A program made the translations under genes and the position numbers. DNA of 16,797 nucleotides from Vulcanimicrobiota bacterium (GTDB taxonomy: Bacteria; Vulcanimicrobiota; Vulcanimicrobiia; Vulcanimicrobiales; Vulcanimicrobiaceae), in assembly GCA_003133025.1 (NCBI GenBank), contig PKZK01000021.1, positions 1-16,797 of the forward strand. Reading direction: 5' to 3'. The notes under the pieces were generated by a model. That model was not told the DNA's origin and made no database searches. It worked only from the letters and a program-made list of their open reading frames with translations. Shown here in pieces: positions 464-11,833 of this stretch. Position 1 is the first letter of the stretch; every line of letters begins with the position of its first letter.

Positions 464-3400
464 CTATCTCGAGGGGCTGCCGGTTTCTCGCTGCAGCTTG
501 CCTGAATCGCGCAACGCCAGGAATCGGGCGTTCCACGGAACGGCGGCGTATGCGGGTGCGAACTCGCCGATTGCCTTCGCTCGCTCATCGTAGAGGCGCG
601 ATGCTTCGGAGAGGTAGACCGCCGCTGCCTCACTGAGACCGCGGTGTTCGGCGACGAGAGCACGCGCCCAAGCCATCAGGTGAGGGAATTCCTCGCCGCT
701 CTGCAGCTCCTGCGGGAGTGCCGCGAGCTCGCGTTCGAGCGCATCCGCGCGCGCGTCAGCCCGGGCGTCGAGTGCCGACACGATCGCAAATGCCAACGTG
801 AGGGCAGAGAGCACGCTCGGCGGTTTCTCGCGGTGAATGGCGAGCGCGCGGTCGAACTCGGCCGCCGCGGTGGTCTCGCGCCCTTCAGCCGCGTGTGCGA
901 GCGCACGGCAGAGGTGCACGTTGGCCTCTTCGATCGTGCCGAACCCGGTGCAGTATTCAGCGATTGCGTCGAGCAGCGCCGGCACTTTGCGCGCATTGCC
1001 GGTATAGAGGTCGACCAGGGCGAGCCCGATCGTGCAGGCTACGCGTACGGCGACGGTCGCGTCCTCTCCGTAGTGGAGCCCTTTCCGATAGAGCGTCCTC
1101 GCCGTTTCGTAGTCGGCCGTCCAGGCGGCCAGGTTTGCTACCTGGAGTTCGTGACCGTCGGCCGCACGCAAGCCGAGCCGGCGCAAGACGTCGACTGCGG
1201 CAGAGAAGTGCGCGCGCGCGTCGGCGAAGCGCTGTTCGTTGATGGCTAGGTTACCCAGCCTGTTGTGCGCCTCGGCTTCGGTGCTCGGATCGCCGCTGCG
1301 CCTCGATTCGTCCAAGAGGCGAGTCGCCGCGGCGAACACTTCGCTGCCCCGCGCCCCGCGGCGCTGTGCCAGCAACGTCTTTACGCGCAGAATCCGCAGG
1401 AGCCCGCGCGCGTCGTCGGGTGCGAGCGCCCGTTCGGCGGCCGCGAGCGCGTCGGCGGCGTGCCGGTAGCGGTCCATCGTGATCGCGATCGTGGCCGATT
1501 CGATGTGCGCTTGCACGATCGCGTTTGCATCTCCCGTACTCTCGGCCGCGGCGAGAAAACGCTCCGCCGCGTTCTGCGCTTCGGCGAAACGATCGTGCGC
1601 GACCGCGTCCACCGCCCGCAGTCGCTCGACCTCGGGCAGCTGCTGGGGTGTAAGCGTCGCCGTCGACAAGGCGGCTAGCGCCGCGGTGCGTACGTCGAGC
1701 CTGCCGGCGAGCGTCGCTGCGGAAGCGCGAAGGATGTGCATGTCGACCGCATGCGCCGGCGTGTCGGACAGTGCCAGCGCGCGCTCGGCGTACGTCAGCG
1801 CTTCTTCATTCGCATACAGCGCCAGAGCGTGGCGTGCGGCAGCGGCGTAGCTTCGCGCCGCCCGTACCGGATCGCCCCCGCGCTCGAAGTGCGCCGCGAT
1901 CTCGGCAGAGTGGTCCGGCCGCTCGCCGAAGAGCTTGGTCTCGGCGTGGGCCACGAGCGCGTGGCGTTGCCGCAGAACCTGCGCGTCGAGCGCTTCGTAA
2001 ACGGCAGCTTGCACGAGATGGTGCGTGAAGGCGTAATCGCCTAAAGCCGCGCGCCGGCCGCGGCGCGCGAATCGCGCTTCAACTAATTCGTCGAGCGCTT
2101 GCACGACATCGAACTCGCTCCAGCCGGATACCTCGCAGAGCAGCTCGATCGTGAAGCCCGACCCCGCAACGACGGCAATCTCGAGCAGCGCGCGAGCCGC
2201 GTCCGTCAGCGCGGCGATCCGCGCAGGCACGTTGAGTCGCGATGCAATCTGGTTCCTCCGCCCCGCATAGACCGCCTCATCCAAAAAGAGCGGCACGCCT
2301 TCGCTGTATGCGTAGAGTTCGTTGGCCCGCTCCTCGACGGCTCGCCCTTCGCCCACGCGTTCCGGAAGCCGCCGAAGGAGTTCGAGCAAGGCATCCCGCT
2401 GCAGGCGCCCCACGGGAAGCGCCTCGAGGATGCCTTCTGCTTCGAGTCGCCGCCGCAGTGCCCGCAAAGGATGCGTTCGGCCGACCCCCTCCTCGCGCGA
2501 GGTCGCGACGATCAACGCAGGCAGCCCGCTCGCACGCCGCGCCAAATACTCGATCAGCGAAGTGCTCGATGGCGTTGCCCAATGCAGGTCTTCCAAAACG
2601 ACGAGCAACGGCCGCTTGCGCGCAAGTTTCTCCAGTGCGGCAAAGAGCGTTTCGAAGATGCGCGCTCGCTCCGCATCGGGCGTTAGCGGCAGCGCACGCT
2701 CCACCGCACCGTGCACGACGATCTCGGGCAAGACCCCGGCCAGGATGCCGGCTTCAGCGCGAGTGAGTTCGCGTACGAGCAACGGAAGCGCGCCGCGCAA
2801 TGCGTCGGCAACCGCCTCGTACGGTCGCGCTTCGCCCGGCGTCGTCGAGCCGATCAGCACTCCGCCGCCCTGGCTCTCGGCGTGCAGGGCGAGTTCCTGG
2901 GAAAGTCGAGACTTGCCGGCGCCGGCCTCACCAGAGAGCAGGATCGTGCGTCCATGTCCGCGCGCGGCTTCGGCCCACGCGCGCGTCAAGGCGGCGAACT
3001 CGCGCTCGCGGCCGACGAAAGGCAGCAGCTTCTCCTCGCGCGCCGGCGCCTCGGACGGCGCCGGCCCTTCGACTGCCGGCGCCTCCCCGCGAACGAGCGC
3101 TTCGAAGGTGGTGCGCGTGTCGGGCGCAGGTTCGACGCCGAGCTCATGCTGCAAGCGTTCCGCGAACGAACGGTAGGCGGCCAGAGCGCCGCTCCGGTCG
3201 CCCAACTCCGCGCGCACGAGCATCTCTATCCGCAGCGCGTCTTCGCGCCAGGGGTCGATCGCGAGAATGCGGCCGATGTCGGCGAGGGCTCCGGCGAAAT
3301 CCCGTTCGCCGCGCTTGCGCCGTACCGAGCGTCGCAACGCGTCGAGTTGCTGCTCGCGAAAGCGCTCGCGCTCGGTGAGAATCCAATCGTCGTTGTGACC

Positions 3401-3784
3401 TTCGAGAAAGGCTCCGCCATAGTGCGCGATCGCCTCGTCATAGCTGCGGGCCGCGTATGCTTCCGCAAAGGCGATCACGTCAACCGAGACGGCGTCCTGA
3501 ACGTTCCAGCGGATGCTCTGCATCGCCGCCGTCAGCAGCGGCTCGGGCGACACGTGCGCCAGGGCCCGGGCTAACACGTGCAGGTTGCGGCGAAGCTTGC
3601 CGCGGCCGCCCTCGGGCTCGTCGTCGGGCCAGAGGAGCGTCGCCAAGAAGTCTCGGGACGTCGGCGCGTCGCGGTGCGTCGCCAAGTAGGCCAACGCCTC
3701 GACGGCCTTGGCCGGAGCGCGGAGCGGTTCGATCGCTCCGTCGATGTCGACCCGCACTTGCCCGAACAGCCGGATCGTCAGCAC
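464..3784 (-). CDS. SARP/AfsR-family transcriptional regulator: OmpR-like winged helix + BTAD + STAND-type AAA ATPase + TPR-like region (~1106 aa)
   Basis: N-terminal LTIRLFG...ALAYLA...SRDFLATLLWPD...LRRNLHVL (wHTH). BTAD motifs VDVIAF, YGGAFLEG, DPWREDA, GDRSGALAAY, ELGVEP. LPFVGRERE, Walker A GEAGAGKS, Walker B LLVVLEDLHW, YAFTHHLVQAAVY, then Ala-rich helical repeats. GTG at 3784 is preferred over the ORF-track start at 3916, which overlaps the divergent gene and its promoter; the exact start is uncertain. Confidence 0.92.
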   Translation of the reverse strand: MLTIRLFGQVRVDIDGAIEPLRAPAKAVEALAYLATHRDAPTSRDFLATLLWPDDEPEGGRGKLRRNLHVLARALAHVSPEPLLTAAMQSIRWNVQDAVSVDVIAFAEAYAARSYDEAIAHYGGAFLEGHNDDWILTERERFREQQLDALRRSVRRKRGERDFAGALADIGRILAIDPWREDALRIEMLVRAELGDRSGALAAYRSFAERLQHELGVEPAPDTRTTFEALVRGEAPAVEGPAPSEAPAREEKLLPFVGREREFAALTRAWAEAARGHGRTILLSGEAGAGKSRLSQELALHAESQGGGVLIGSTTPGEARPYEAVADALRGALPLLVRELTRAEAGILAGVLPEIVVHGAVERALPLTPDAERARIFETLFAALEKLARKRPLLVVLEDLHWATPSSTSLIEYLARRASGLPALIVATSREEGVGRTHPLRALRRRLEAEGILEALPVGRLQRDALLELLRRLPERVGEGRAVEERANELYAYSEGVPLFLDEAVYAGRRNQIASRLNVPARIAALTDAARALLEIAVVAGSGFTIELLCEVSGWSEFDVVQALDELVEARFARRGRRAALGDYAFTHHLVQAAVYEALDAQVLRQRHALVAHAETKLFGERPDHSAEIAAHFERGGDPVRAARSYAAAARHALALYANEEALTYAERALALSDTPAHAVDMHILRASAATLAGRLDVRTAALAALSTATLTPQQLPEVERLRAVDAVAHDRFAEAQNAAERFLAAAESTGDANAIVQAHIESATIAITMDRYRHAADALAAAERALAPDDARGLLRILRVKTLLAQRRGARGSEVFAAATRLLDESRRSGDPSTEAEAHNRLGNLAINEQRFADARAHFSAAVDVLRRLGLRAADGHELQVANLAAWTADYETARTLYRKGLHYGEDATVAVRVACTIGLALVDLYTGNARKVPALLDAIAEYCTGFGTIEEANVHLCRALAHAAEGRETTAAAEFDRALAIHREKPPSVLSALTLAFAIVSALDARADARADALERELAALPQELQSGEEFPHLMAWARALVAEHRGLSEAAAVYLSEASRLYDERAKAIGEFAPAYAAVPWNARFLALRDSGKLQRETGSPSR

Positions 3785-3826
3785 GAGCAGCGCTTCAGCA
3801 ATCGGGCCGCCGCTTCCCGGGCCGCA

Positions 3827-3859
3827 TCGGACGCTTTTCCGACGGTCGCCCTGTAGCGT
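3827..3859 (+). promoter_or_regulatory. Putative SARP-binding box (TCGGACG-CTTT-TCCGACG) plus -10 element TAGCGT; probable leaderless promoter of the 62-aa gene
   Basis: Heptamer direct repeat with 11-bp period at 3827-3844, 9-nt spacer, TAGCGT at 3854-3859, and ATG 6 nt later at 3866 with no SD. Confidence 0.7.
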
Positions 3860-3865
3860 GGGCGG

Positions 3866-4054
3866 ATGGATAGCGCGGATGCGACGGCCGTTTTTATCGT
3901 GCGGATGTGGCGGCAAGGTGGGCCCGATTCGGACGCGGCGTGGCGCGGATCGGTCGAAGACGTGGGTGGCAAACGCCGCATATACTTCACGAACTTAGGC
4001 TCGATGTGCGAGTTCATGGTCGAACAGCGCGGCCACGCTACGAGAGAAGAATAA
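3866..4054 (+). CDS. Small hypothetical protein (62 aa) of a type I recall next to BTAD/SARP regulators
   Basis: AVFIVRMWRQ...AWRGSVEDVGGKRRIYFTNLGSMCEFM has a globular beta-beta-beta-alpha-like pattern (FxxRxW...WRGxVE...F..L..L..F). It fits exactly between two promoter boxes. Confidence 0.75.
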   Translation: MDSADATAVFIVRMWRQGGPDSDAAWRGSVEDVGGKRRIYFTNLGSMCEFMVEQRGHATREE

Positions 4055-4057
4055 GCG

Positions 4058-4090
4058 TCGGACGCTTTTCGGACGAGCACGCTCTATGGT
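4058..4090 (+). promoter_or_regulatory. Second putative SARP-binding box (TCGGACG-CTTT-TCGGACG) plus -10 element TATGGT, upstream of the NHL lipoprotein gene
   Basis: Perfect heptamer direct repeat at 4058-4075, 17/18 identical to the box at 3827-3844, with the same 9-nt spacer to TATGGT at 4085-4090. Confidence 0.72.
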
Positions 4091-4140
4091 TGCCGGGAGC
4101 CGGAATACCGGCGCACGCACCGCACAGAGGAGAACCTCCA

Positions 4141-5112
4141 ATGTCCCACTCGTTCCCGGGAAAACGTTCCCCCCGTCTCACAATCTTCGCGGCCGCAGTC
4201 GCGGTCGCACTCGCCGGGTGCTCCGGCACTTCGGCCGGCTTGTCACCTGCAACGAACGGCGGCGCCTCGACATCCTCGTTCGCGCACTCCGGTCTCACCG
4301 GTCCCTTTTCAGGCCTCCTCGGCGGCCCACTCGCGGGCCCGCTACAAAAACTCTACATCGCGGGCTATACGAGTAATACGATCTCGACCTACACCACCGA
4401 CGGAAAGCCGAGCACGCCCACGATCACGGGCCTCGACGGCCCGGTCGGCATCGCGGTCGACGCCGCCGGAAAGATCTACGTTGCCGACAGCAGCTCCCTC
4501 CCGAATACCGGCCAAATCCTGACCTTCAATCCGGATGGATCGCCGGCGAGCCCCACCATTACCACGGGTCTCTCGCAGCCGTTTGGAGTGGCGGTCGACG
4601 CAAACGGGAAAATCTACGTCGCCAACTATAACGGCAACTCGGTCACGACGTACCTTGCAGACGGCACGCAAACGAGTCCGACCATCACCGGACTCCAGCA
4701 ACCAACCGACGTTAAGGTCGACGCGAACGGCAAAATCTACGTGAGCCAAAAAGGAACGGGCAGCTTCAACGGTTCCGTCACCACATACAATCCCGACGGA
4801 ACCCAGACGAAGCCGACCATCACCGCCGGCATCTCGCTGCCGCAATCGCTCGCCCTCGACGCACGAGGCAACATCTACGTCAGTAGCGACGCCTCAGACG
4901 AGATCACGACGTATACTCCACAAGGCAAACAGCGAAAGATAACCATGGCCGTCACGAACGGTGACCCCGGCTACATCGCAATCGGACCCACCGGCAAGGT
5001 CTACGTCACGAGTACGCACGGCTTCATGACGACCTTCACCAGAGGCGGCAAGCCCATCAAGCCGACGATCTCGGGCCTTCCGGAGCCGCCCCTAGGAATA
5101 GCGATTCATTAA
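4141..5112 (+). CDS. NHL-repeat beta-propeller lipoprotein (~323 aa)
   Basis: SD AGAGGAG at 4126-4132 before ATG 4141 (the ORF-track start at 3907 is too far upstream). Signal peptide with lipobox LAGC, a Gly/Ser linker, then about six repeats of TYxxDGxxxxPTITGLxxPxGIAVDAxGKIYV. Confidence 0.88.
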   Translation: MSHSFPGKRSPRLTIFAAAVAVALAGCSGTSAGLSPATNGGASTSSFAHSGLTGPFSGLLGGPLAGPLQKLYIAGYTSNTISTYTTDGKPSTPTITGLDGPVGIAVDAAGKIYVADSSSLPNTGQILTFNPDGSPASPTITTGLSQPFGVAVDANGKIYVANYNGNSVTTYLADGTQTSPTITGLQQPTDVKVDANGKIYVSQKGTGSFNGSVTTYNPDGTQTKPTITAGISLPQSLALDARGNIYVSSDASDEITTYTPQGKQRKITMAVTNGDPGYIAIGPTGKVYVTSTHGFMTTFTRGGKPIKPTISGLPEPPLGIAIH

Positions 5113-5217
5113 AACAGCCGCAAAGCGGACGCGGGAGTGCGTGGTGCCTCCCCGCCGCTAGGCCCCTTGCGTGCCGGTCGCTCGGGCGATCGGCGAGGCG
5201 CGCGACTTGACGAGGAG

Positions 5218-5368
5218 AGGCTGCGATGCGAACACGACCGACGAGATCGAAGCCGCCGACCACGGCATCGGCGCGGTCGATGCCGTCCGGCAGGCGATCG
5301 CACAATACCACGCCTCGCGCAACGCCTGGGCCTCCCCGAGCGTTTCAGGCTCGTGGCAAGCGCCTTAG
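5218..5368 (+). pseudogene. Remnant 3' end of a paralogue of the downstream glycoside hydrolase-like gene
   Basis: Translates GCDANTTDEIEAADHGIG--AVDAVRQAIAQY versus GWDANSTDDIEGADDGIGRSAVETVREQIRQY at 6619-6714. DNA 5218-5271 vs 6618-6671 matches at 47/54 positions by hand count. Ends at TAG 5366-5368. Confidence 0.75.
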
Positions 5369-6771
5369 CCGCTACCGTTCTCGCTACGCTCACGCTCGCT
5401 TCCCCGCAGAGCGCGGTTCCGAATGCGCCCTTGATCGTCGACGGCTCCAGCCGTGTCGTGGTCATGGAATACGAGGCCTGGTTTGGCCCGAAAGCCGTGG
5501 GCTTTCCGCTACGCGGGCAGTCGCCGCGGCCGCTCCTGACCTCACCCGACATGCAACCCTATGGCGGGGGCTACGATAGCGCCGATCCCGACGTCATCCG
5601 CAACCACATCACCAACCTTACCGCAATGGGCGCGGACGCGGCCATCGTCGAGCTGACCAATAACGTGAGTTGCATTTTCGACGACGGCGACGCTGCGGTG
5701 AATCCGGCGCTGCTCAACCCGTGCGGACAAACGACGGTCGCGCTCAATCGCAGCTTCAAGAAAAGCAATCAGCAGATTCGCGACAACGACGGGCTGATCT
5801 ACTCCGCCTGGTCGGAGCTCGGCACCAATCTGAAGATCATCCCGCTCTTGGCCTGTCAAGACAACGGCTGTTTGACGCCGTACAGCGCGAGCGGCTCGGC
5901 TACGGGCTTCGGCGTCGACCCGTGCCCGGCGATCCCGGGCATTCCGGTGGGCAACCTCGACGGCAACCCGGCGGTGAACGGCACGAACTCGTTCGAGAAA
6001 GAGATGGCTTGGTACGGCGAGCAGATGGCGCGCTATCCCAACCTCAACGTGATCTACGAAGGCAAACCGCTCGTTTTGATCTTTGCGCCGCCGGGCGTCG
6101 ACGACACGCCCTGCCTGATGAACGAGCTGCACGACAGCATCGTCGCCACGGGCCTCGATCGAAAGTACACGTTCCGCATGATGGGCGGGTATTTCGATAC
6201 CGACTCGACGTTCTGGGACGAGCCTGCGGGTTACGTGCCCACCGCGCCGACCCCGCTCAAGCGCGGCTTCGGCTTTTGGTGGTGGAGTTGGGTCGACCGG
6301 CTGAACCGGCGCTTCTCGTACTTTCCGTCGTACACGCCGGCGCCGCACGCACCGCGCGTGGAAAACCTCACCGTCTCGATCGCGACCGCCGGTCAGAACG
6401 GCTGGGGCACCTACCCGGACTCATGCCCACCTGCGCCACGCGAGAACCCGCCGCTGACGACGTGCAAACCGGGCACCGACTACTTCGTCGACGCGTCGCT
6501 GCGCGACGAAGACCACGTGCCCTATTCGACCTTCACCAATTTCATGTGCGTCGCGCGCAAGCTCGATCCGATCTTCCTGATGGTGCATCAGTTCAACGAA
6601 TTCTCGTTCGGCGATGAAGGCTGGGACGCGAACTCGACCGACGACATCGAGGGCGCCGACGACGGCATCGGTCGCAGCGCCGTCGAAACGGTGCGCGAGC
6701 AGATCCGGCAGTACGAGCCTACGGCCGCCAGAGGCCGATCGAGGAACCAACCCAGGTCATGTCGCGGTTGA
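5353..6771 (+). CDS. Secreted GH99/GH71-like glycoside hydrolase (TIM-barrel), substrate unknown
   Basis: Hydrophobic signal-like segment VASALAATVLATLTLASPQSA. Motifs MEYEAWFG, P...GGYDSADPDVIRNH...MGADAAIVE, YEGKPLVLIF and LMVHQFNEF...DEGW...DDIE resemble the GH99 clan. Start uncertain (GTG 5353 or slightly upstream); the ORF-track N-terminus 5137-5320 is Arg-rich out-of-frame read-through of the paralogue remnant. Confidence 0.6.
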   Translation: MASALAATVLATLTLASPQSAVPNAPLIVDGSSRVVVMEYEAWFGPKAVGFPLRGQSPRPLLTSPDMQPYGGGYDSADPDVIRNHITNLTAMGADAAIVELTNNVSCIFDDGDAAVNPALLNPCGQTTVALNRSFKKSNQQIRDNDGLIYSAWSELGTNLKIIPLLACQDNGCLTPYSASGSATGFGVDPCPAIPGIPVGNLDGNPAVNGTNSFEKEMAWYGEQMARYPNLNVIYEGKPLVLIFAPPGVDDTPCLMNELHDSIVATGLDRKYTFRMMGGYFDTDSTFWDEPAGYVPTAPTPLKRGFGFWWWSWVDRLNRRFSYFPSYTPAPHAPRVENLTVSIATAGQNGWGTYPDSCPPAPRENPPLTTCKPGTDYFVDASLRDEDHVPYSTFTNFMCVARKLDPIFLMVHQFNEFSFGDEGWDANSTDDIEGADDGIGRSAVETVREQIRQYEPTAARGRSRNQPRSCRG

Positions 6772-7936
6772 AGTCCACGCCGATCATCGCGCCGCGCGCG
6801 AGCCTGCACAGGTTGAGCGCGGGCACGAATTGCGCCGCATCGTCCGGACGCAAGTAGATCATGCGAATCTCGGCCTTGATGCCGCCGCCGTCGACCGCGC
6901 GCAGGCGCGGTGCGTACGTAATCTTCCGTTGCAGGCACCACGCGGCGCGCATGTCCGCCGGAATTGCCGCAACGTCGGCCGCGGTCGGGGCCACGTTGAC
7001 GCCGCCGCCCGCAAACGAGAAGAGCGGCTTGAGCACGTAGTTCTCCGTCAGGTCCGGCGGCACGTCGGAAAGCTCCGAAAGCAGTTGCGTGCGCGGCACC
7101 GCCGGATGGTCGAGAAACGGCAGCGAGTACTTCGACCAGATGAAAAACCAGTTCGGGTGCGGCGTCCACTCGACGTCCAACTCTTCGCGCAGGTCGAAGG
7201 GCAAAGTCACGCCCTTCTTCTCGAGTTCGTCGATGACGATGCGCCAGTAGATGCGCTCGACGGGAAGCTCGCGTCCGGCGTCGTCGCGGCGGAAAAGCCG
7301 CCGGCCGCGCTTTTCGAGCTTCGTCGGACAGACCGCATCCACGCCGAAGAGCGTCTTGCTCGCGCGAAAATCGCACGACGTCTTCTGCTCGGACGGATCG
7401 ATGTCGACGAGCGCGACGTGCGCGGGGTCGTGGTCGCCCACGATCGTCTCCCGTGCCAGCGCGAGGATCTGGTCGCGCGACAGACCGCCGAAGCGGCACG
7501 ACCACGGGCCCTCGAGGCCCGGCATCGTCGCAAGCTCCGCGCCCCACGCATCGGCCTGCATGACCTGGAAGCCGACCAGCGACGGAAAACCCTGCAGTTC
7601 GATCAGACGCGGGCCGAGCGTCCCGTCCGCCTCCTCGACGAGCGCGAAGTCGATGATGCCGAAGCTGGGCAGCGCCGTCTCGCCCGGGACGTGCCGGTCG
7701 GCGGGAATCGCGTCGCGCATGCGCGCGATCTTCTCCGGCAGACAGAGTTGCGCGAGGATCTCGTCGGCCGCGCGCACGCAGCGTTCGCGCAAGTCGGCCG
7801 AAAAGAAGACCGGCGTCTCCGCCAGCCGGAAGCCGATCTCGCGCCCGCCGGTGCGCGCGACCAGGTCGGCGGCATAGCGCGCGTAGACGGCGTCGCTAAA
7901 AGCCGCGTTGAAGTGCGCGCGGGCGCCCGGCTCCAC
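6719..7936 (-). CDS. Circularly permuted ATP-grasp amide ligase (glutathionylspermidine synthase-like)
   Basis: IDFALV...GPRLIELQGFPSL (N-terminally placed metal-binding D...E), ERIYWRIVIDE, HPNWFFIWSKYSLPFL, YVLKPLFSFAGGGV, WCLQRKITY. This motif order is typical of the permuted ATP-grasp. Confidence 0.72.
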   Translation of the reverse strand: MEPGARAHFNAAFSDAVYARYAADLVARTGGREIGFRLAETPVFFSADLRERCVRAADEILAQLCLPEKIARMRDAIPADRHVPGETALPSFGIIDFALVEEADGTLGPRLIELQGFPSLVGFQVMQADAWGAELATMPGLEGPWSCRFGGLSRDQILALARETIVGDHDPAHVALVDIDPSEQKTSCDFRASKTLFGVDAVCPTKLEKRGRRLFRRDDAGRELPVERIYWRIVIDELEKKGVTLPFDLREELDVEWTPHPNWFFIWSKYSLPFLDHPAVPRTQLLSELSDVPPDLTENYVLKPLFSFAGGGVNVAPTAADVAAIPADMRAAWCLQRKITYAPRLRAVDGGGIKAEIRMIYLRPDDAAQFVPALNLCRLARGAMIGVDFNRDMTWVGSSIGLWRP

Positions 7937-7953: not shown

Positions 7954-8976
7954 CTACGCTGCGCTGACGAGACCGTGGAGCTTTCGCTCGATCAGATCGC
8001 CGAACACGAAGCGCGCGACTTGCAGCCGCTGGTCGCGGCGGTCGTCGCGCAAAACGGGCAGCAGGCCCGAACGCTGACGAAACACGTCGGCGTTGATCTG
8101 GCCGCGCAGCAAGAGCCGCTCGAGAAGACCCTGCACGCGCTCGGGCGTGCCGATTTCAGGATGGCTGTTCACCGCGAAGACGCGCGGCGTCGCGCCGTCG
8201 GCCGCACGCGCGAACTCGAACATCGTGAGCGCCGAGCCGCGGCCGCCTTCGCCCGCGCTCTCGAAGGCGATCGGGCTCATGCCCGCCGGAAAGCTCGACG
8301 CGACCGGGATGAGGTCGTAGTAGCGCGACTCGAGCACCGGCAGCACCGGCCCCGGCAACTCGGCCAGCAACGGCTCGAACCACGGGTGCGCGCGCCCCGC
8401 GCCGGTCAGCACGTCGGCGCCCACGCCGCTCATCGCACCGCCCTTTTCCGGGCCGCGCAACACGGGTTGCGCGATGCCTGACCAGCGGCAGAGCAAACCG
8501 AACGTGTGGCACACGCCGTAGAGCGAGGCGCTCTCGTCGGCCAGGATCGCGTCGAACAGCGCCCACAGCGGCGCTTCCCACGAGGGGTCTTCTCGAATCT
8601 CGCGCGCGCCGTCGTCGCTGGTGTTGCGACGCGGGTCGAGGTGACCGGGGCCGCCGGTGCCCAGATAGAGATGGTGCCGCCCGCTCGCGTGATCGGGGAT
8701 CGCCAAGCCGTCGCGAATCGCATACGAAAGAACGCGGATCGTGCGTCCGCGTTCGTCCAATTCGTCCTGGTATTCCGAGGCCAAATCGTGCAAGAACGCG
8801 AGCATCGCATCGTGCCCCACGTTGGGATAACCGTGGTTCATGTCGAGCAGTGCGACGTCTATCGCAGCCGGATCGGCCGCGGGCAGATCGCCGGGCCGCT
8901 CCACCCGGACCACGTCGAAATGGCTCGTGCGCCAATCGATCGGTAGAACGTGAGCCGAGCGGATGGGCTCAAGCAA
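7954..8976 (-). CDS. Class I glutamine amidotransferase-like protein (amidotransferase or gamma-glutamyl hydrolase)
   Basis: Oxyanion motif GTGGPG, nucleophile elbow YGVCHTFG and C-terminal NSHPE give an intact Cys-His-Glu triad. TTG start overlaps the upstream stop by 8 nt. Confidence 0.82.
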   Translation of the reverse strand: MLEPIRSAHVLPIDWRTSHFDVVRVERPGDLPAADPAAIDVALLDMNHGYPNVGHDAMLAFLHDLASEYQDELDERGRTIRVLSYAIRDGLAIPDHASGRHHLYLGTGGPGHLDPRRNTSDDGAREIREDPSWEAPLWALFDAILADESASLYGVCHTFGLLCRWSGIAQPVLRGPEKGGAMSGVGADVLTGAGRAHPWFEPLLAELPGPVLPVLESRYYDLIPVASSFPAGMSPIAFESAGEGGRGSALTMFEFARAADGATPRVFAVNSHPEIGTPERVQGLLERLLLRGQINADVFRQRSGLLPVLRDDRRDQRLQVARFVFGDLIERKLHGLVSAA

Positions 8977-10084
8977 CGGGAACGCCCGCCTCTGTCTCGT
9001 CGATCACGTACTGCACCACGTCCTTCAGACTCCCGGTTTCCTTGAACACCGCCAACTGGCGATCCGCACCCGTGCCCCGGCGTATGATCTCGTACACGTA
9101 GCGGATTTCATCGGTCGTACCGAGTTCGCCCGCCACGTCGTCGACGAACTCCAAGAGTTCGATCAACAGGTCCTGGGTGGGCACCTCGGTCTTCTTACCC
9201 AGATCGATCAGCTTTCCGCCCAGGCCGAAACGTGCCGCCCGCCACTTGTTCTCATTTAACAAAGATCGACGGTATTGGCGCCAACCCTGGTTCCGATCGT
9301 ACAACTTCCAGAGCTTATAGGTGACCGCTTGGAAGAAGGCCGCCAGGCACATGACCTCGTCGATGCGCATCTGGGCATCGCAGATCCGGAATTCGAGCGT
9401 GGGATAGTAGGGGTGCACGCGCACGTCCCACCAGATCTTCTTGCCGTCGGTGATGCACCCGGTCGCGATGAGCGTGTTGAGGAAATCCTGGTATTCCATC
9501 CACGAGCCGAACGAGTCGGGCAATCCCGTGCGCGGGAAGCGCTCGAAGATTTTGGAGCGGTAGCTCATCCAGCCCGTCTCGATGCCCGTCCAGAACGGCG
9601 AGTTGACCGAGAGCGCGAAGATGTGCGGCAGAAAGTAGCGCACGCCGTTCATGATGGCCACGCGCGCTTCGTCGTCTTCGAGGCCGATGTGCACGTGCAA
9701 GCCGAAGATCAAGTTGGCTCGCGCGACCAACTGCAGGTCCTGGATCAGGCGATCGTAGTGCGCGCCGGGCGTCGTCGGCACGGTCGACCAGTGCGTGAAC
9801 GGATGCGTGCCGGCCGAGCCCACGCGCAGGCCGTTGCGCCGCGCGAGGTGCACGATTTCGCCGCGCAGCCGGGTGACCTCGCGCCGCGCCTCGGCGATAT
9901 CCGCGCACACCGGCGTGGTCAATTCGATCACCGGATCGTGCAGTTCGCGCTTCATCTGGTCGTGCAAGAGCGTGTTGCCCTCGGCAAACATCTGCTGGAT
10001 GTGCGATTTCAACTCGTACGTCGCCGGGTCGATGACCTGGAACTCTTCCTCGATGCCGACGGTGAAGGTAGGCCGTTCTGCCAT
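8969..10084 (-). CDS. ybdK: Carboxylate-amine ligase, YbdK/GCS2 family (glutamate--cysteine ligase 2-like, ~371 aa)
   Basis: FTVGIEEEFQVID, IELTTPVC, SAGTHPF, IFGLHVHIG, ALSVNSPFW, FPRTGLP, IWWDVRVHPYYPTLEFRICD, ENKWRAARFG. ATG at 10082-10084 overlaps the upstream TGA (TGATG). Confidence 0.93.
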   Translation of the reverse strand: MAERPTFTVGIEEEFQVIDPATYELKSHIQQMFAEGNTLLHDQMKRELHDPVIELTTPVCADIAEARREVTRLRGEIVHLARRNGLRVGSAGTHPFTHWSTVPTTPGAHYDRLIQDLQLVARANLIFGLHVHIGLEDDEARVAIMNGVRYFLPHIFALSVNSPFWTGIETGWMSYRSKIFERFPRTGLPDSFGSWMEYQDFLNTLIATGCITDGKKIWWDVRVHPYYPTLEFRICDAQMRIDEVMCLAAFFQAVTYKLWKLYDRNQGWRQYRRSLLNENKWRAARFGLGGKLIDLGKKTEVPTQDLLIELLEFVDDVAGELGTTDEIRYVYEIIRRGTGADRQLAVFKETGSLKDVVQYVIDETEAGVPVA

Positions 10085-11037
10085 CAGACGTGTCCTCGCG
10101 CCAGGGCCGTCGTTTGCGGCCACGCGCCGGTGAGTTCGAGGGGCAGGGGGTTGCGTACGCGATCGATCAGGGTCTCGGCCATCGCGTCGACGATCCAGGT
10201 GAAGTTCGCCGGGCCCACCGAGTGGGCGTCGGCGTCGGGTGCGGGGTTGGTGAAGTCGATCGCATACGGGATGCCGCCGCGCACGGCGAGTTCGACCGTG
10301 TTCATGTCGTAGCCGAGCGCTTCGGAGAGCGCCAGCGCGTCGCGGCGCAGCCGGGTCAGGAGCGCGGGCTCGGTGCGCGGCGCGTCGAGCACGTAGCGCA
10401 GGTGGTGCGGCTGTTTGGGATCGTAGCGCATCACGTGCACGTGCTTGCGCCCGATCACGTAAATGCGGTAGTAGTCCTCGAAATCGATCGCTTCTTGCGC
10501 CATCATCGTCAGGTCGCGCGTGTTATCGTATGCCGCGAAAAACTCGGCGGGCGTGTCGCACTTGTACACGTCCTTCCAACCGCCGCCGTACGCCGGCTTC
10601 AAGAAGATGGGAAAGCCTAAATAGCCGAAGACTTCGTCCCAATCCACCAGGCGCAGGTTGCGAAACGAGTTGGCCTCCGTGTTCGGCGGCCGGTCCTTGT
10701 GCGGCAGCAGCACGGTGCGCGGCGTGGCTACGCCGACCGACTCGGCCACGATGTTCCCGAAGTACTTGTCGTCGGCCGACCACCAGAACGGGTTGTTCAC
10801 GACCTGCACGCCGCGCGCCGCGGCCACTTTGAGAAACGTGCGGTAGTACGGCACTTCGTGGCTGATCCGGTCGAGAATCAACGCGTAATCGAAGTGCTGC
10901 GTGTCGCGCAGGTACGAGATCTCGACGGGCGCGGCGGTGATTTCGCCGCCGCCCCGCGCGTCGATAGCGTTGATCAGGGCCCACGGGAACGTGTCTTCCA
11001 TCCCGAAGAGCAACCCGATCCGCCGAACGGTCGACAC
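10084..11037 (-). CDS. ATP-grasp ligase, RimK/glutathione synthetase-like (~317 aa)
   Basis: ILDRISHEVPYYR, VVNNPFWWSADDKY, GVATPRTVLLP, FPIFLKPAYGGGWKDVYK, MAQEAIDF, TVELAV...YAIDFTNPAPD. GTG at 11035-11037 is preceded by a G-rich SD-like GGGGGTG; the ORF-track start at 11175 overlaps the divergent esterase. Confidence 0.85.
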   Translation of the reverse strand: MSTVRRIGLLFGMEDTFPWALINAIDARGGGEITAAPVEISYLRDTQHFDYALILDRISHEVPYYRTFLKVAAARGVQVVNNPFWWSADDKYFGNIVAESVGVATPRTVLLPHKDRPPNTEANSFRNLRLVDWDEVFGYLGFPIFLKPAYGGGWKDVYKCDTPAEFFAAYDNTRDLTMMAQEAIDFEDYYRIYVIGRKHVHVMRYDPKQPHHLRYVLDAPRTEPALLTRLRRDALALSEALGYDMNTVELAVRGGIPYAIDFTNPAPDADAHSVGPANFTWIVDAMAETLIDRVRNPLPLELTGAWPQTTALARGHV

Positions 11038-11125
11038 TTTTACACCCCCGCCATGTTCGCGAAAAAAACTTGAGCGCGACGCATTCGAGGGAACCGGCGC
11101 GGGCCCTATGCAATTGGGAGCGCCG

Positions 11126-11833
11126 ATGAAACGTACGCACGAAGCCTGGTTTAGCCCCAATCTGGGCCGGAGCATGGAGTTGCTGTGGTTCGGATGGTCG
11201 GGCTTTCCGGTGATCGCCTTCCCGACCTCGATGGGCCGCTACGTCCAGTATGAGGACACGGGGCTCGTCGCCCACATCGCCGACAAGATCGAGGCGGGGT
11301 ACCTGCAACTGATCTGCGTCGATTCCGTCGACGCCGACACGTGGTACGACGAGCACATCCCCCCATCCGAACGTGGCCCGCGCCACGAGCGCTACGACGC
11401 GTACATCGCCGATGAGATCGTGCCCTACGTGCACGCCCGCGCCCAGCGCGGCGACCTCGGCGTCTTCGGCTGCAGCTTCGGCGGCTATCACGCGGCGAAT
11501 TTCGCCGGCCGGCACCCGGACCTCGTGACCAAGGCAGTCTGCCTCTCGGGCGTCTACGACGTCCGGCGTTTTACCAACGGCTACTTCGGCCTGACTGAAT
11601 ACCTCAACTCGCCCGTCGAGTACATCGCGAACATGGACGACGAGTGGGTTCGCCGCCTGGCCCGCATCGAGTGGGTCATCGCAACCGGCGAATACGACTC
11701 CCTGGTCGACGACAACCGCCGCTTCAGCGCCGTCCTGGGCTCCAAGGGCATCCCCAACCACACCGAGATTTGGAGCGGCGTGTTCGGCCACGACTGGCCG
11801 TTTTGGAACGAGGCCGTCCGCCGGCTGCTCTAG
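11126..11833 (+). CDS. Alpha/beta-hydrolase, putative esterase family (~235 aa)
   Basis: SD GGGAG at 11116-11120 before ATG 11126. SPNLGRSMELLWFG, FPTSMGR, nucleophile elbow GCSFGGYHA, LSGVYD, catalytic His in GHDWPFW. Confidence 0.88.
   Translation: MKRTHEAWFSPNLGRSMELLWFGWSGFPVIAFPTSMGRYVQYEDTGLVAHIADKIEAGYLQLICVDSVDADTWYDEHIPPSERGPRHERYDAYIADEIVPYVHARAQRGDLGVFGCSFGGYHAANFAGRHPDLVTKAVCLSGVYDVRRFTNGYFGLTEYLNSPVEYIANMDDEWVRRLARIEWVIATGEYDSLVDDNRRFSAVLGSKGIPNHTEIWSGVFGHDWPFWNEAVRRLL

Follow-up and report, generated by a model that had tools for sequence, protein, structure and literature searches.

Which protein reads two direct repeats that lie beside a large regulator gene in a Vulcanimicrobiota bacterium, and which genes would it control? 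The window, meaning the whole 16.8-kb stretch of DNA that we analyzed, is contig C111 of a 3.35-Mb host assembly with 66.5% GC and 80% completeness. An earlier note had read the repeats as SARP-type operator/promoter units of the neighboring STAND-SARP regulator, and we compared this reading with the sequence, with related genomes, and with known regulators.

Two box/hexamer units and their neighboring genes

Box 1 (positions 3827 to 3844, plus strand) is the direct repeat TCGGACG-CTTT-TCCGACG, with an 11-bp period, and is followed 9 nt later by TAGCGT (3854 to 3859, plus strand), the predicted -10 element of promoter 1. Box 2 (4058 to 4075, plus strand), the direct repeat TCGGACG-CTTT-TCGGACG, stands 9 nt before TATGGT (4085 to 4090, plus strand), the predicted -10 element of promoter 2, and both boxes are predicted operators. 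Rereading the sequence placed both 18-bp boxes and their TAnnnT hexamers where they had been reported. The claim that each box lies directly before a gene start held for box 1, where the ATG of a 62-aa ORF (3866) is 6 nt beyond the hexamer; box 2 is near a gene start, but 50 nt separate its hexamer from the ATG of a lipoprotein gene at 4141, which is preceded by GAGGAG at 4127 to 4132. Transcription from promoter 1 is predicted to start at 3866, giving a leaderless transcript of the 62-aa gene, and that from promoter 2 at about 4097. No sigma-70 -35/-10 pair was found across positions 3700 to 5400. Assembled RNA contigs, to which we give no weight because the runs had been selected with this very stretch and contigs reveal neither the strand nor the start of a transcript, include the same pieces over 3769 to 4269 in X1 and X2 (probably one data set), a contig over 3911 to 4110 in X3, and scattered short pieces in X4. 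An inverted repeat at 4053 to 4067 (6 pairs, then a few T residues) spans the stop codon of the small gene and the left half of box 2 and could be a weak terminator or a mirror half-site; read by eye, the copy of box 2 at a related locus (L037) has no flanking inverted repeat.

The exact pair pattern, chosen for this test after the pattern had been seen, occurred at a mean of 0.012 per shuffled window, with two or more copies in 1 of 1,000 shuffles. When two mismatches were allowed, the window held 4 pairs versus 3.27 expected, which is the chance level. Three exact pairs are present in the 3.35-Mb genome, and the hexamer accompanies only the two window copies; the third pair (C112:2398) lacks it. 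Other spacings from 0 to 15 nt gave 0 to 1 exact pairs each in this genome.

The regulator gene (464 to 3784, minus strand) encodes about 1,106 aa from a probable GTG at 3784, a start taken from where its homologues begin; the longest ORF opens at a TTG at 3916. An OmpR-type winged helix (residues about 1 to 95), with a predicted recognition helix at residues 57 to 76 (GRGKLRRNLH), is followed by a BTAD (residues 109 to 229; Pfam PF03704, 3.5e-19, 70 bits, above the cut-off) and an AAA_16-type STAND ATPase (residues 255 to 424; Pfam AAA_16, 1.5e-25) with Walker A GEAGAGKS and Walker B LEDLHWA. C-terminal to the ATPase are a helical arm and TPR-like repeats, which in the structure model are all helical over residues 600 to 1095. 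The model has a pLDDT of 90.9 and contains the winged helix, BTAD, ATPase, and helical repeats. Pfam Trans_reg_C had no match in the window regulator and was below threshold in three of seven relatives; the winged helix was recognized from an alignment with EmbR that begins at residue 4 and from the strand/helix order of the model (pLDDT about 90). A TPR match was weak for the window regulator (0.0048) and strong in its relatives, consistent with a C-terminal TPR sensor. Among solved structures, EmbR (2fez, 5.9e-11) gave the best match to the N-terminal 240 aa in a single-sequence search, and AfsR (8hvr) matched at 7.8e-4. The profile of the regulator family matched full-length AfsR (8k60) at 4.8e-36 and also matched 6mfv and 1hz4.

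The small gene (3866 to 4054, plus strand) belongs to an unnamed family and is the predicted first target of the regulator. The second predicted target, at 4141 to 5112 (plus strand), encodes a 323-aa NHL-repeat beta-propeller protein (Pfam NHL, 3.8e-18) with a lipoprotein-type signal, its lipobox LAGC and Cys27 being read from the sequence. Directly behind it, an ORF at 5137 to 6771 (plus strand), whose true start is probably later than 5137, has a signal-like stretch and no Pfam or NCBIfam match, and it may be cotranscribed from promoter 2; some of its motifs resemble those of a glycoside hydrolase. The rest of the window comprises an ATP-grasp-like ORF (6719 to 7936, minus strand) and an amidotransferase-like ORF (7954 to 8976, minus strand), both assigned by eye; a GCS2 glutamate-cysteine ligase gene (8969 to 10123, minus strand; family match); a LysX-like ATP-grasp ORF (10084 to 11175, minus strand; weak match); and an esterase-like ORF (10901 to 11833, plus strand; by eye). 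We agree with the earlier view that no antibiotic cluster is visible, as Pfam and NCBIfam gave no synthetase families among the genes of this 16.8-kb contig.

Conservation of the units and their association with the regulator family

An unseeded motif search in upstream regions of 220 nt from 29 homologues of the small gene, with the host's own genome left out, returned TTGGACG-N4-CGGGACG-N9-TACGCT. Motif discovery upstream of homologous loci, which had been proposed as a check, thereby recovered the GGACG repeat, the 11-bp period, N9, and TAnnnT. GAC..GAC at period 11 was present in 13 of the 29 upstream regions versus 1 to 4 for other periods. A poorly fitting locus (L018) was removed before a weight matrix was built from these sites. 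Loci L011, L017, L018, and L020, from four unpublished genomes, entered the motif search and three of them the matrix, and the tallies over 61 related genomes take in unpublished genomes G018, G020, G027, G028, and G048; the 60-locus, target, and protein-alignment sets described below contain no unpublished sequence, yet they were used with the same matrix.

Box 1, with a CTTT or CATT linker, is kept before the small gene in all 10 close-homologue metagenome loci (L033 to L042), of which about 5 are distinct; L031 and L032, near-copies of the window, were not counted. The start codon in these loci is 6 to 7 nt past the hexamer, though the regulator gene, rather than being divergent, precedes or follows the small gene. 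L037 has both boxes, an 18-mer identical to box 2 separating the small gene from a lipoprotein-like ORF. L051, where the regulator is truncated, has no box before the small gene. Over all distinct small genes, 40 of 47 had an upstream site of at least 12 bits (training sites included) and 7 had none; 24 of the 40 start 6 to 7 nt past the hexamer. The distance from heptamer end to hexamer was 9 nt in 21 of 28 cases and 10 nt in 7. The core of the earlier reading, with SARP-type units, a leaderless 62-aa gene, and a separate NHL promoter, is thus borne out as a prediction by conservation of motif and spacing in homologous loci. Ten loci (L004, L008, L011, L020, L058, L068, L085, L091, L102, and L105; L011 and L020 from unpublished genomes) have back-to-back mirror boxes, an arrangement by which a pair of divergent genes would be transcribed from a single short intergenic region.

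In the matrix scan of the host genome, box 2 ranked 2nd at 22.4 bits and box 1 ranked 21st at 16.1 bits. Controls with altered geometry attain the latter score 8 to 16 times, so the credibility of box 1 derives from its conservation and not from its matrix score. Sites of at least 18 bits numbered 12 versus 2 to 6 in controls, and sites of at least 14 bits numbered 44 versus 33 to 54, so that enrichment is present only at high scores. The top sites are at small-gene loci on C18 and C248 and ahead of ORFs with a signal peptide on C142, C207, and C248; other sites fall inside genes.

The motif also follows the regulator. Among the best 60 of 79 regulator matches in published relatives, 43 loci contained 71 sites of at least 15 bits, compared with 5 to 7 sites when the period or spacer was altered, and 17 loci had none. 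No small gene follows 43 of the 71 sites (34 loci), which hence played no part in training the matrix. The exact pattern GGACG-N6-GGACG-N9/10-TAnnnT occurred 104 times in 34 of the 61 related genomes (6 of the 104 being training sites), against 4 matches for a reversed control and 10 for a period-12 control. The genome-wide scan that had been suggested thus ties the motif to the regulator family: 103 matches fall in 33 of 42 regulator-bearing genomes and 1 falls in 1 of 19 regulator-less genomes, an association to be read as a pattern and not as a P value since the genomes are kin and nonindependent. No exact match to the GG pattern was present in nine of the 42 genomes that have the regulator.

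Homologues of the small gene were found in 29 of the 61 genomes with a single sequence and in 31 with a profile, and the profile matched 6,360 clusters at an E value of 0.001 or less in a 50%-identity library; neither Pfam nor NCBIfam has a family for the 62-aa protein. Within 6 kb of a regulator homologue lie 39 of 44 small-gene copies (22 behind it, 7 in front, 6 divergent, and 4 convergent), and 37 of 87 regulator matches have a small gene within 6 kb. The 62-aa gene is a constant companion of the regulators and the most constant part of the system. We found no fused forms of the small protein among 7,995 candidates of 133 to 2,000 aa, which is weak evidence, and a comparison of regulators with and without the small gene singled out no domain by differential conservation, being confounded by the subclass with an NB-ARC-like ATPase.

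That second subclass, of about 950 to 990 aa (L059, L066, L069, L076, L094, L098, L108, and L112), has the same SARP head and an NB-ARC-like ATPase. Some of its loci also have GGACG boxes, and the DNA-binding head is therefore joined to two ATPase types.

Candidate readers of the boxes and the predicted regulon

Box type varies with the recognition helix of the adjacent regulator. Boxes share 6.04 of 8 variable positions within a locus (46 pairs) versus 3.73 across loci (3,440 pairs), a likeness reached in 0 of 2,000 permutations. To compare helices with boxes, we used the 46 loci whose box class is clear and omitted 4 mixed and 20 siteless loci. Box class is best tracked by alignment columns within the predicted recognition helix, where L.ELRRY goes with G[CT]ACG and R.[NK]LRR[HN] with GGACG. 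Tyrosine is at helix position 71 in 11 of 11 G[CT]ACG loci and glutamate at 67 in 10 of 11, and neither is present in any of the 27 GGACG loci. G001, G009, G025, and G047 each contain both box/helix types, as do G049, G052, and G056, though with weaker or mixed sites. The G[CT]ACG pattern is noisier (77 matches in the 61 genomes, reversed control 26); it matched 55 times in 14 of the 15 genomes that encode an ELRRY regulator and 18 times in 8 of the 19 fetched genomes where no such regulator was detected. A quick tree of the BTAD part placed the ELRRY rows on an open fork that does not separate the number of switches; the helix/box switch is likely a single evolutionary event. The host genome, at 80% completeness, has G[CT]ACG boxes on C142 and C248, and no ELRRY regulator was found in it. 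On C248 (G000:C248:815-3040), behind a STAND-TPR fragment that lacks the SARP part, lies a paralogue of the small gene with a G[CT]ACG box, and a separate boxed, leaderless gene for an exported protein occupies the expected place of the regulator 5' part.

From these comparisons of sequence, we consider it highly probable that the boxes are a conserved promoter motif, bound by the neighboring STAND-SARP as a substitute for a -35 element. It is improbable that they are SARP promoters read mainly by a paralogue encoded elsewhere. The host has four close paralogues of the regulator, namely the window copy and three more (one on C18 and two on C207); action at a distance appears normal, as many boxes of relatives are far from any fetched regulator; and one helix type serves GGACG, AGACG, and GAACG boxes. 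However, TCGGACG-CTTT-TC.GACG travels with close orthologues of the window regulator through three gene orders, and the C18 paralogue is flanked by GAGACG/GAACG boxes of its own.

The 62-aa protein might itself bind the repeats and regulate its own gene and the neighbors, which we judge very unlikely. The box is most constant ahead of the small gene (the 40 of 47 above), and the subtype of the small protein appears by eye to track box type. Its structure model (pLDDT 83), a three-strand sheet plus a helix, resembles small nucleic acid-binding domains, and a fold search gave weak matches to dsRBD-, HicB-, and AP2-like chains; the best of these had a Z score of 5.5, with none reaching 8, the best Foldseek E value was 0.71, and the site geometry is that of a winged-helix activator. 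In addition, five genomes (G004, G016, G023, G030, and G035) have boxes and regulators and no small gene by profile, among them G004 (97% complete, 9 exact sites) and G023 (99% complete, one contig), which points to the STAND-SARP as the likely binder.

OmpR-family activators also bind repeats of 11-bp period over the -35 region. SARP binding has been likened to that of GlnR and PhoP (PMC11301090). The boxes could on this ground belong to a global response regulator of the OmpR/PhoB type or serve an alternative sigma factor as promoters, with an incidental link to the SARP, and two of the remote targets described below are LuxR-type regulators. Against this, SARP-less genomes gave a single match where SARP-bearing genomes gave 103, and box variants stand side by side in one genome, each fitting the helix of its local regulator; we give this explanation as little credence as binding by the small protein. 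Least credible of all, and largely refuted, is that the boxes arose by local duplication or chance or that box 2 is mainly a weak terminator hairpin, since the modest score of box 1 and the overlap of box 2 with a 6-pair inverted repeat and a few T residues are set against conservation, the spacing controls, the genome-level association, and the L037 copy of box 2, which by eye has no such repeat.

The neighboring STAND-SARP (464 to 3784, minus strand) would thus bind each box as a side-by-side pair, take the place of the absent -35 element, and bring RNA polymerase to TAnnnT. By analogy with AfsR, one winged-helix domain would occupy each GGACG half-site, the BTAD would contact sigma region 4 and the polymerase, and the ATPase/TPR part would hold the activator off until a signal arrives. 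Two transcripts are predicted as outputs, a leaderless one that begins at 3866 and carries the small gene and another that begins at about 4097 and encodes the NHL lipoprotein. The target list leads us to guess that the signal is an envelope or outside cue. The 62-aa protein is most likely a feedback partner of the regulator; this is the weakest step, a guess from linkage, and a complex prediction with regulator residues 1 to 930 gave a score of 0.05 and a mark of 0.32, which weighs neither for nor against it. Autoregulation through box 1, which the earlier note had entertained, found no support in the window: the regulator strand has no TAnnnT 9 to 10 nt past a repeat, and close orthologues with other gene orders (L035 and L037) have no box ahead of the regulator. 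Boxes directed at the regulator gene do exist at L102 and L105.

For the wider regulon, we examined 60 of the 104 exact sites, all of them away from the regulator loci that had been fetched, with gene starts picked by a heuristic. An ORF starts 5 to 8 nt past the hexamer at 15 of the 60 sites, and 4 sites have no ORF. By a crude measure, the ORF after the site has a hydrophobic N terminus in 38 of 60 cases versus 181 of 542 background genes of the host genome. Families were scanned for 34 of the 56 downstream ORFs. Five are NHL/Vgb-type propellers and 2 are LuxR-type regulators; GH123, peptidase M48, pro-kumamolisin, S74 chaperone, TonB_C, TPR, and DUF1232 were matched once each, and 20 ORFs have no family. 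None of the 34 has a polyketide or peptide synthetase family. The genomes of family f3 (L142 to L157) have recurrent unnamed exported families among the remote targets, with N-terminal motifs such as 'C.nqWLFNG.WR' and 'C.S.sPC' and no Pfam match in those scanned. The window cassette is one case of a putative class-wide system with remote targets, in which these regulators likely control small sets of genes for exported proteins, every paralogue using a half-site variant of its own.

Relation to known systems and occurrence in other phyla

The closest likeness is to AfsR of Streptomyces coelicolor and its target afsS, reportedly a small gene adjoining afsR. AfsR (8k60, 8jke, and 8hvr) shares the large-SARP layout of winged helix, BTAD, nucleotide-binding domain, and TPR, and the afsS promoter likewise has two 11-bp repeats in place of a -35 element, in the same register to the -10 element (PMC10936776 and PMC11301090). 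The afs box extends from -40 to -19, with contacts in the first 8 bp of each 11-bp repeat (PMC10936776), which by arithmetic places the ends of these contacts at -33 and -22. If 3866 is taken as +1, the two heptamers before it likewise end at -33 and -22 and the hexamer spans -12 to -7, a register that matches the solved AfsR-promoter complex. AfsR is described in PMC11301090 as binding side by side 8 bp upstream of the -10 element; we infer that 8 versus 9 nt depends on where the repeat is said to end. The window differs from the Streptomyces system in its host (Eremiobacterota/Vulcanimicrobiota), in its GGACG half-site, which is not the afs-box sequence, in a 62-aa protein predicted to be a folded domain, and in predicted targets that are mostly exported proteins. 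The ATPases differ as well, AfsR having an NB-ARC-clade ATPase with an HD latch (bioRxiv 10.64898/2026.09.02.748808) and the window regulator an AAA_16 ATPase with FTHHL, at a position that we take as equivalent to the F/Y-HD motif, and no NB-ARC match at an E value of 0.05 or less. That preprint defines AfsR-like large SARPs by NB-ARC, F/Y-HD, and TPR, of which the window regulator has the TPR; on that definition, it is a SARP by domain and promoter type and not an AfsR orthologue.

Other regulators resemble it in part. ActII-ORF4, DnrI, and RedD bind direct repeats 11 bp apart that end about 8 bp before the -10 element (PMC10936776). Unlike the window regulator, they have no ATPase/TPR part and are located in biosynthetic clusters. 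EmbR of Mycobacterium tuberculosis (2fez) is alike over the N-terminal 240 aa (E value, 5.9e-11) and differs in having an FHA domain instead of STAND-TPR and in being actinobacterial; it regulates envelope genes. MalT and PH0952-type STAND factors combine a STAND ATPase with a TPR-like sensor (6mfv and 1hz4). MalT is controlled by partner proteins, a model for the role of the small protein, and has a C-terminal LuxR-type DNA-binding domain, whereas the SARP part of the window regulator is N-terminal.

The regulator matched 46 plasmid records, of which 10 were fetched. A small-gene homologue lies beside the regulator in 3 of the 10 fetched loci, all from Deinococcota; a plasmid search with one small-protein homologue gave no match. 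Meiothermus taiwanensis has AATGACG-N4-AATGACG-N10-TAAGCT, with an annotated start 7 nt later, and two Deinococcus loci have ATCA-core repeats with the same geometry by eye. L173 repeats the layout of the window, with its second box before a delta-60-repeat gene. Period-11 units gave 15 raw rows in the 10 loci versus 1 to 4 for periods 9, 10, 12, and 13, shifted duplicates included. The same predicted layout is therefore present with other heptamers in cultured Deinococcota. Look-alike clusters in the atlas are mostly from Chloroflexota and Deinococcota, which we treat as a lead only. Repeats of 11-bp period with a hexamer 9 to 10 nt later also occur beside BTAD regulators without a small gene at L177:7903, L178:8123, L181:9614, and L182:671, on plasmids of Thermus, Allomeiothermus, Deinococcus, and Nostoc.

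Our literature search found no paper on SARP/BTAD regulons or the GGACG motif in Eremiobacterota or Deinococcota, and the terms searched do not occur in the main text of the Vulcanimicrobium paper (PMC9758169). Among the papers found, SARP control of this kind is described only for Streptomyces and its kin, and even in Streptomyces the targets of most large SARPs are unknown according to bioRxiv 10.64898/2026.09.02.748808. Beyond the earlier note, the analysis adds a large unnamed 62-aa family tied to the regulators, genome-wide and mostly exported predicted targets, and the occurrence in Deinococcota. Tentatively, and with more doubt than confidence, we suggest that these are parts of an undescribed widespread system of an NLR-like STAND-SARP sensor, a first-induced leaderless 62-aa protein that feeds back on it directly, and an exported/surface regulon, with a two-residue helix code that separates paralogues, in Eremiobacterota, Deinococcota, and possibly Chloroflexota.

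The analysis defines a concrete operator, predicts a specificity code, and lists candidate targets for a nonactinobacterial branch of the SARPs, and it assigns a large, unnamed family of small proteins to a regulatory circuit. Roles of STAND-type transcription factors outside secondary metabolism become testable in cultured strains of Meiothermus and Deinococcus, such as Meiothermus taiwanensis WR-220 (WP_027888672.1 and WP_027888671.1) and Deinococcus aetherius (WP_264778296.1 and WP_264778297.1), and regulons become readable in a phylum that has hardly any cultured members.
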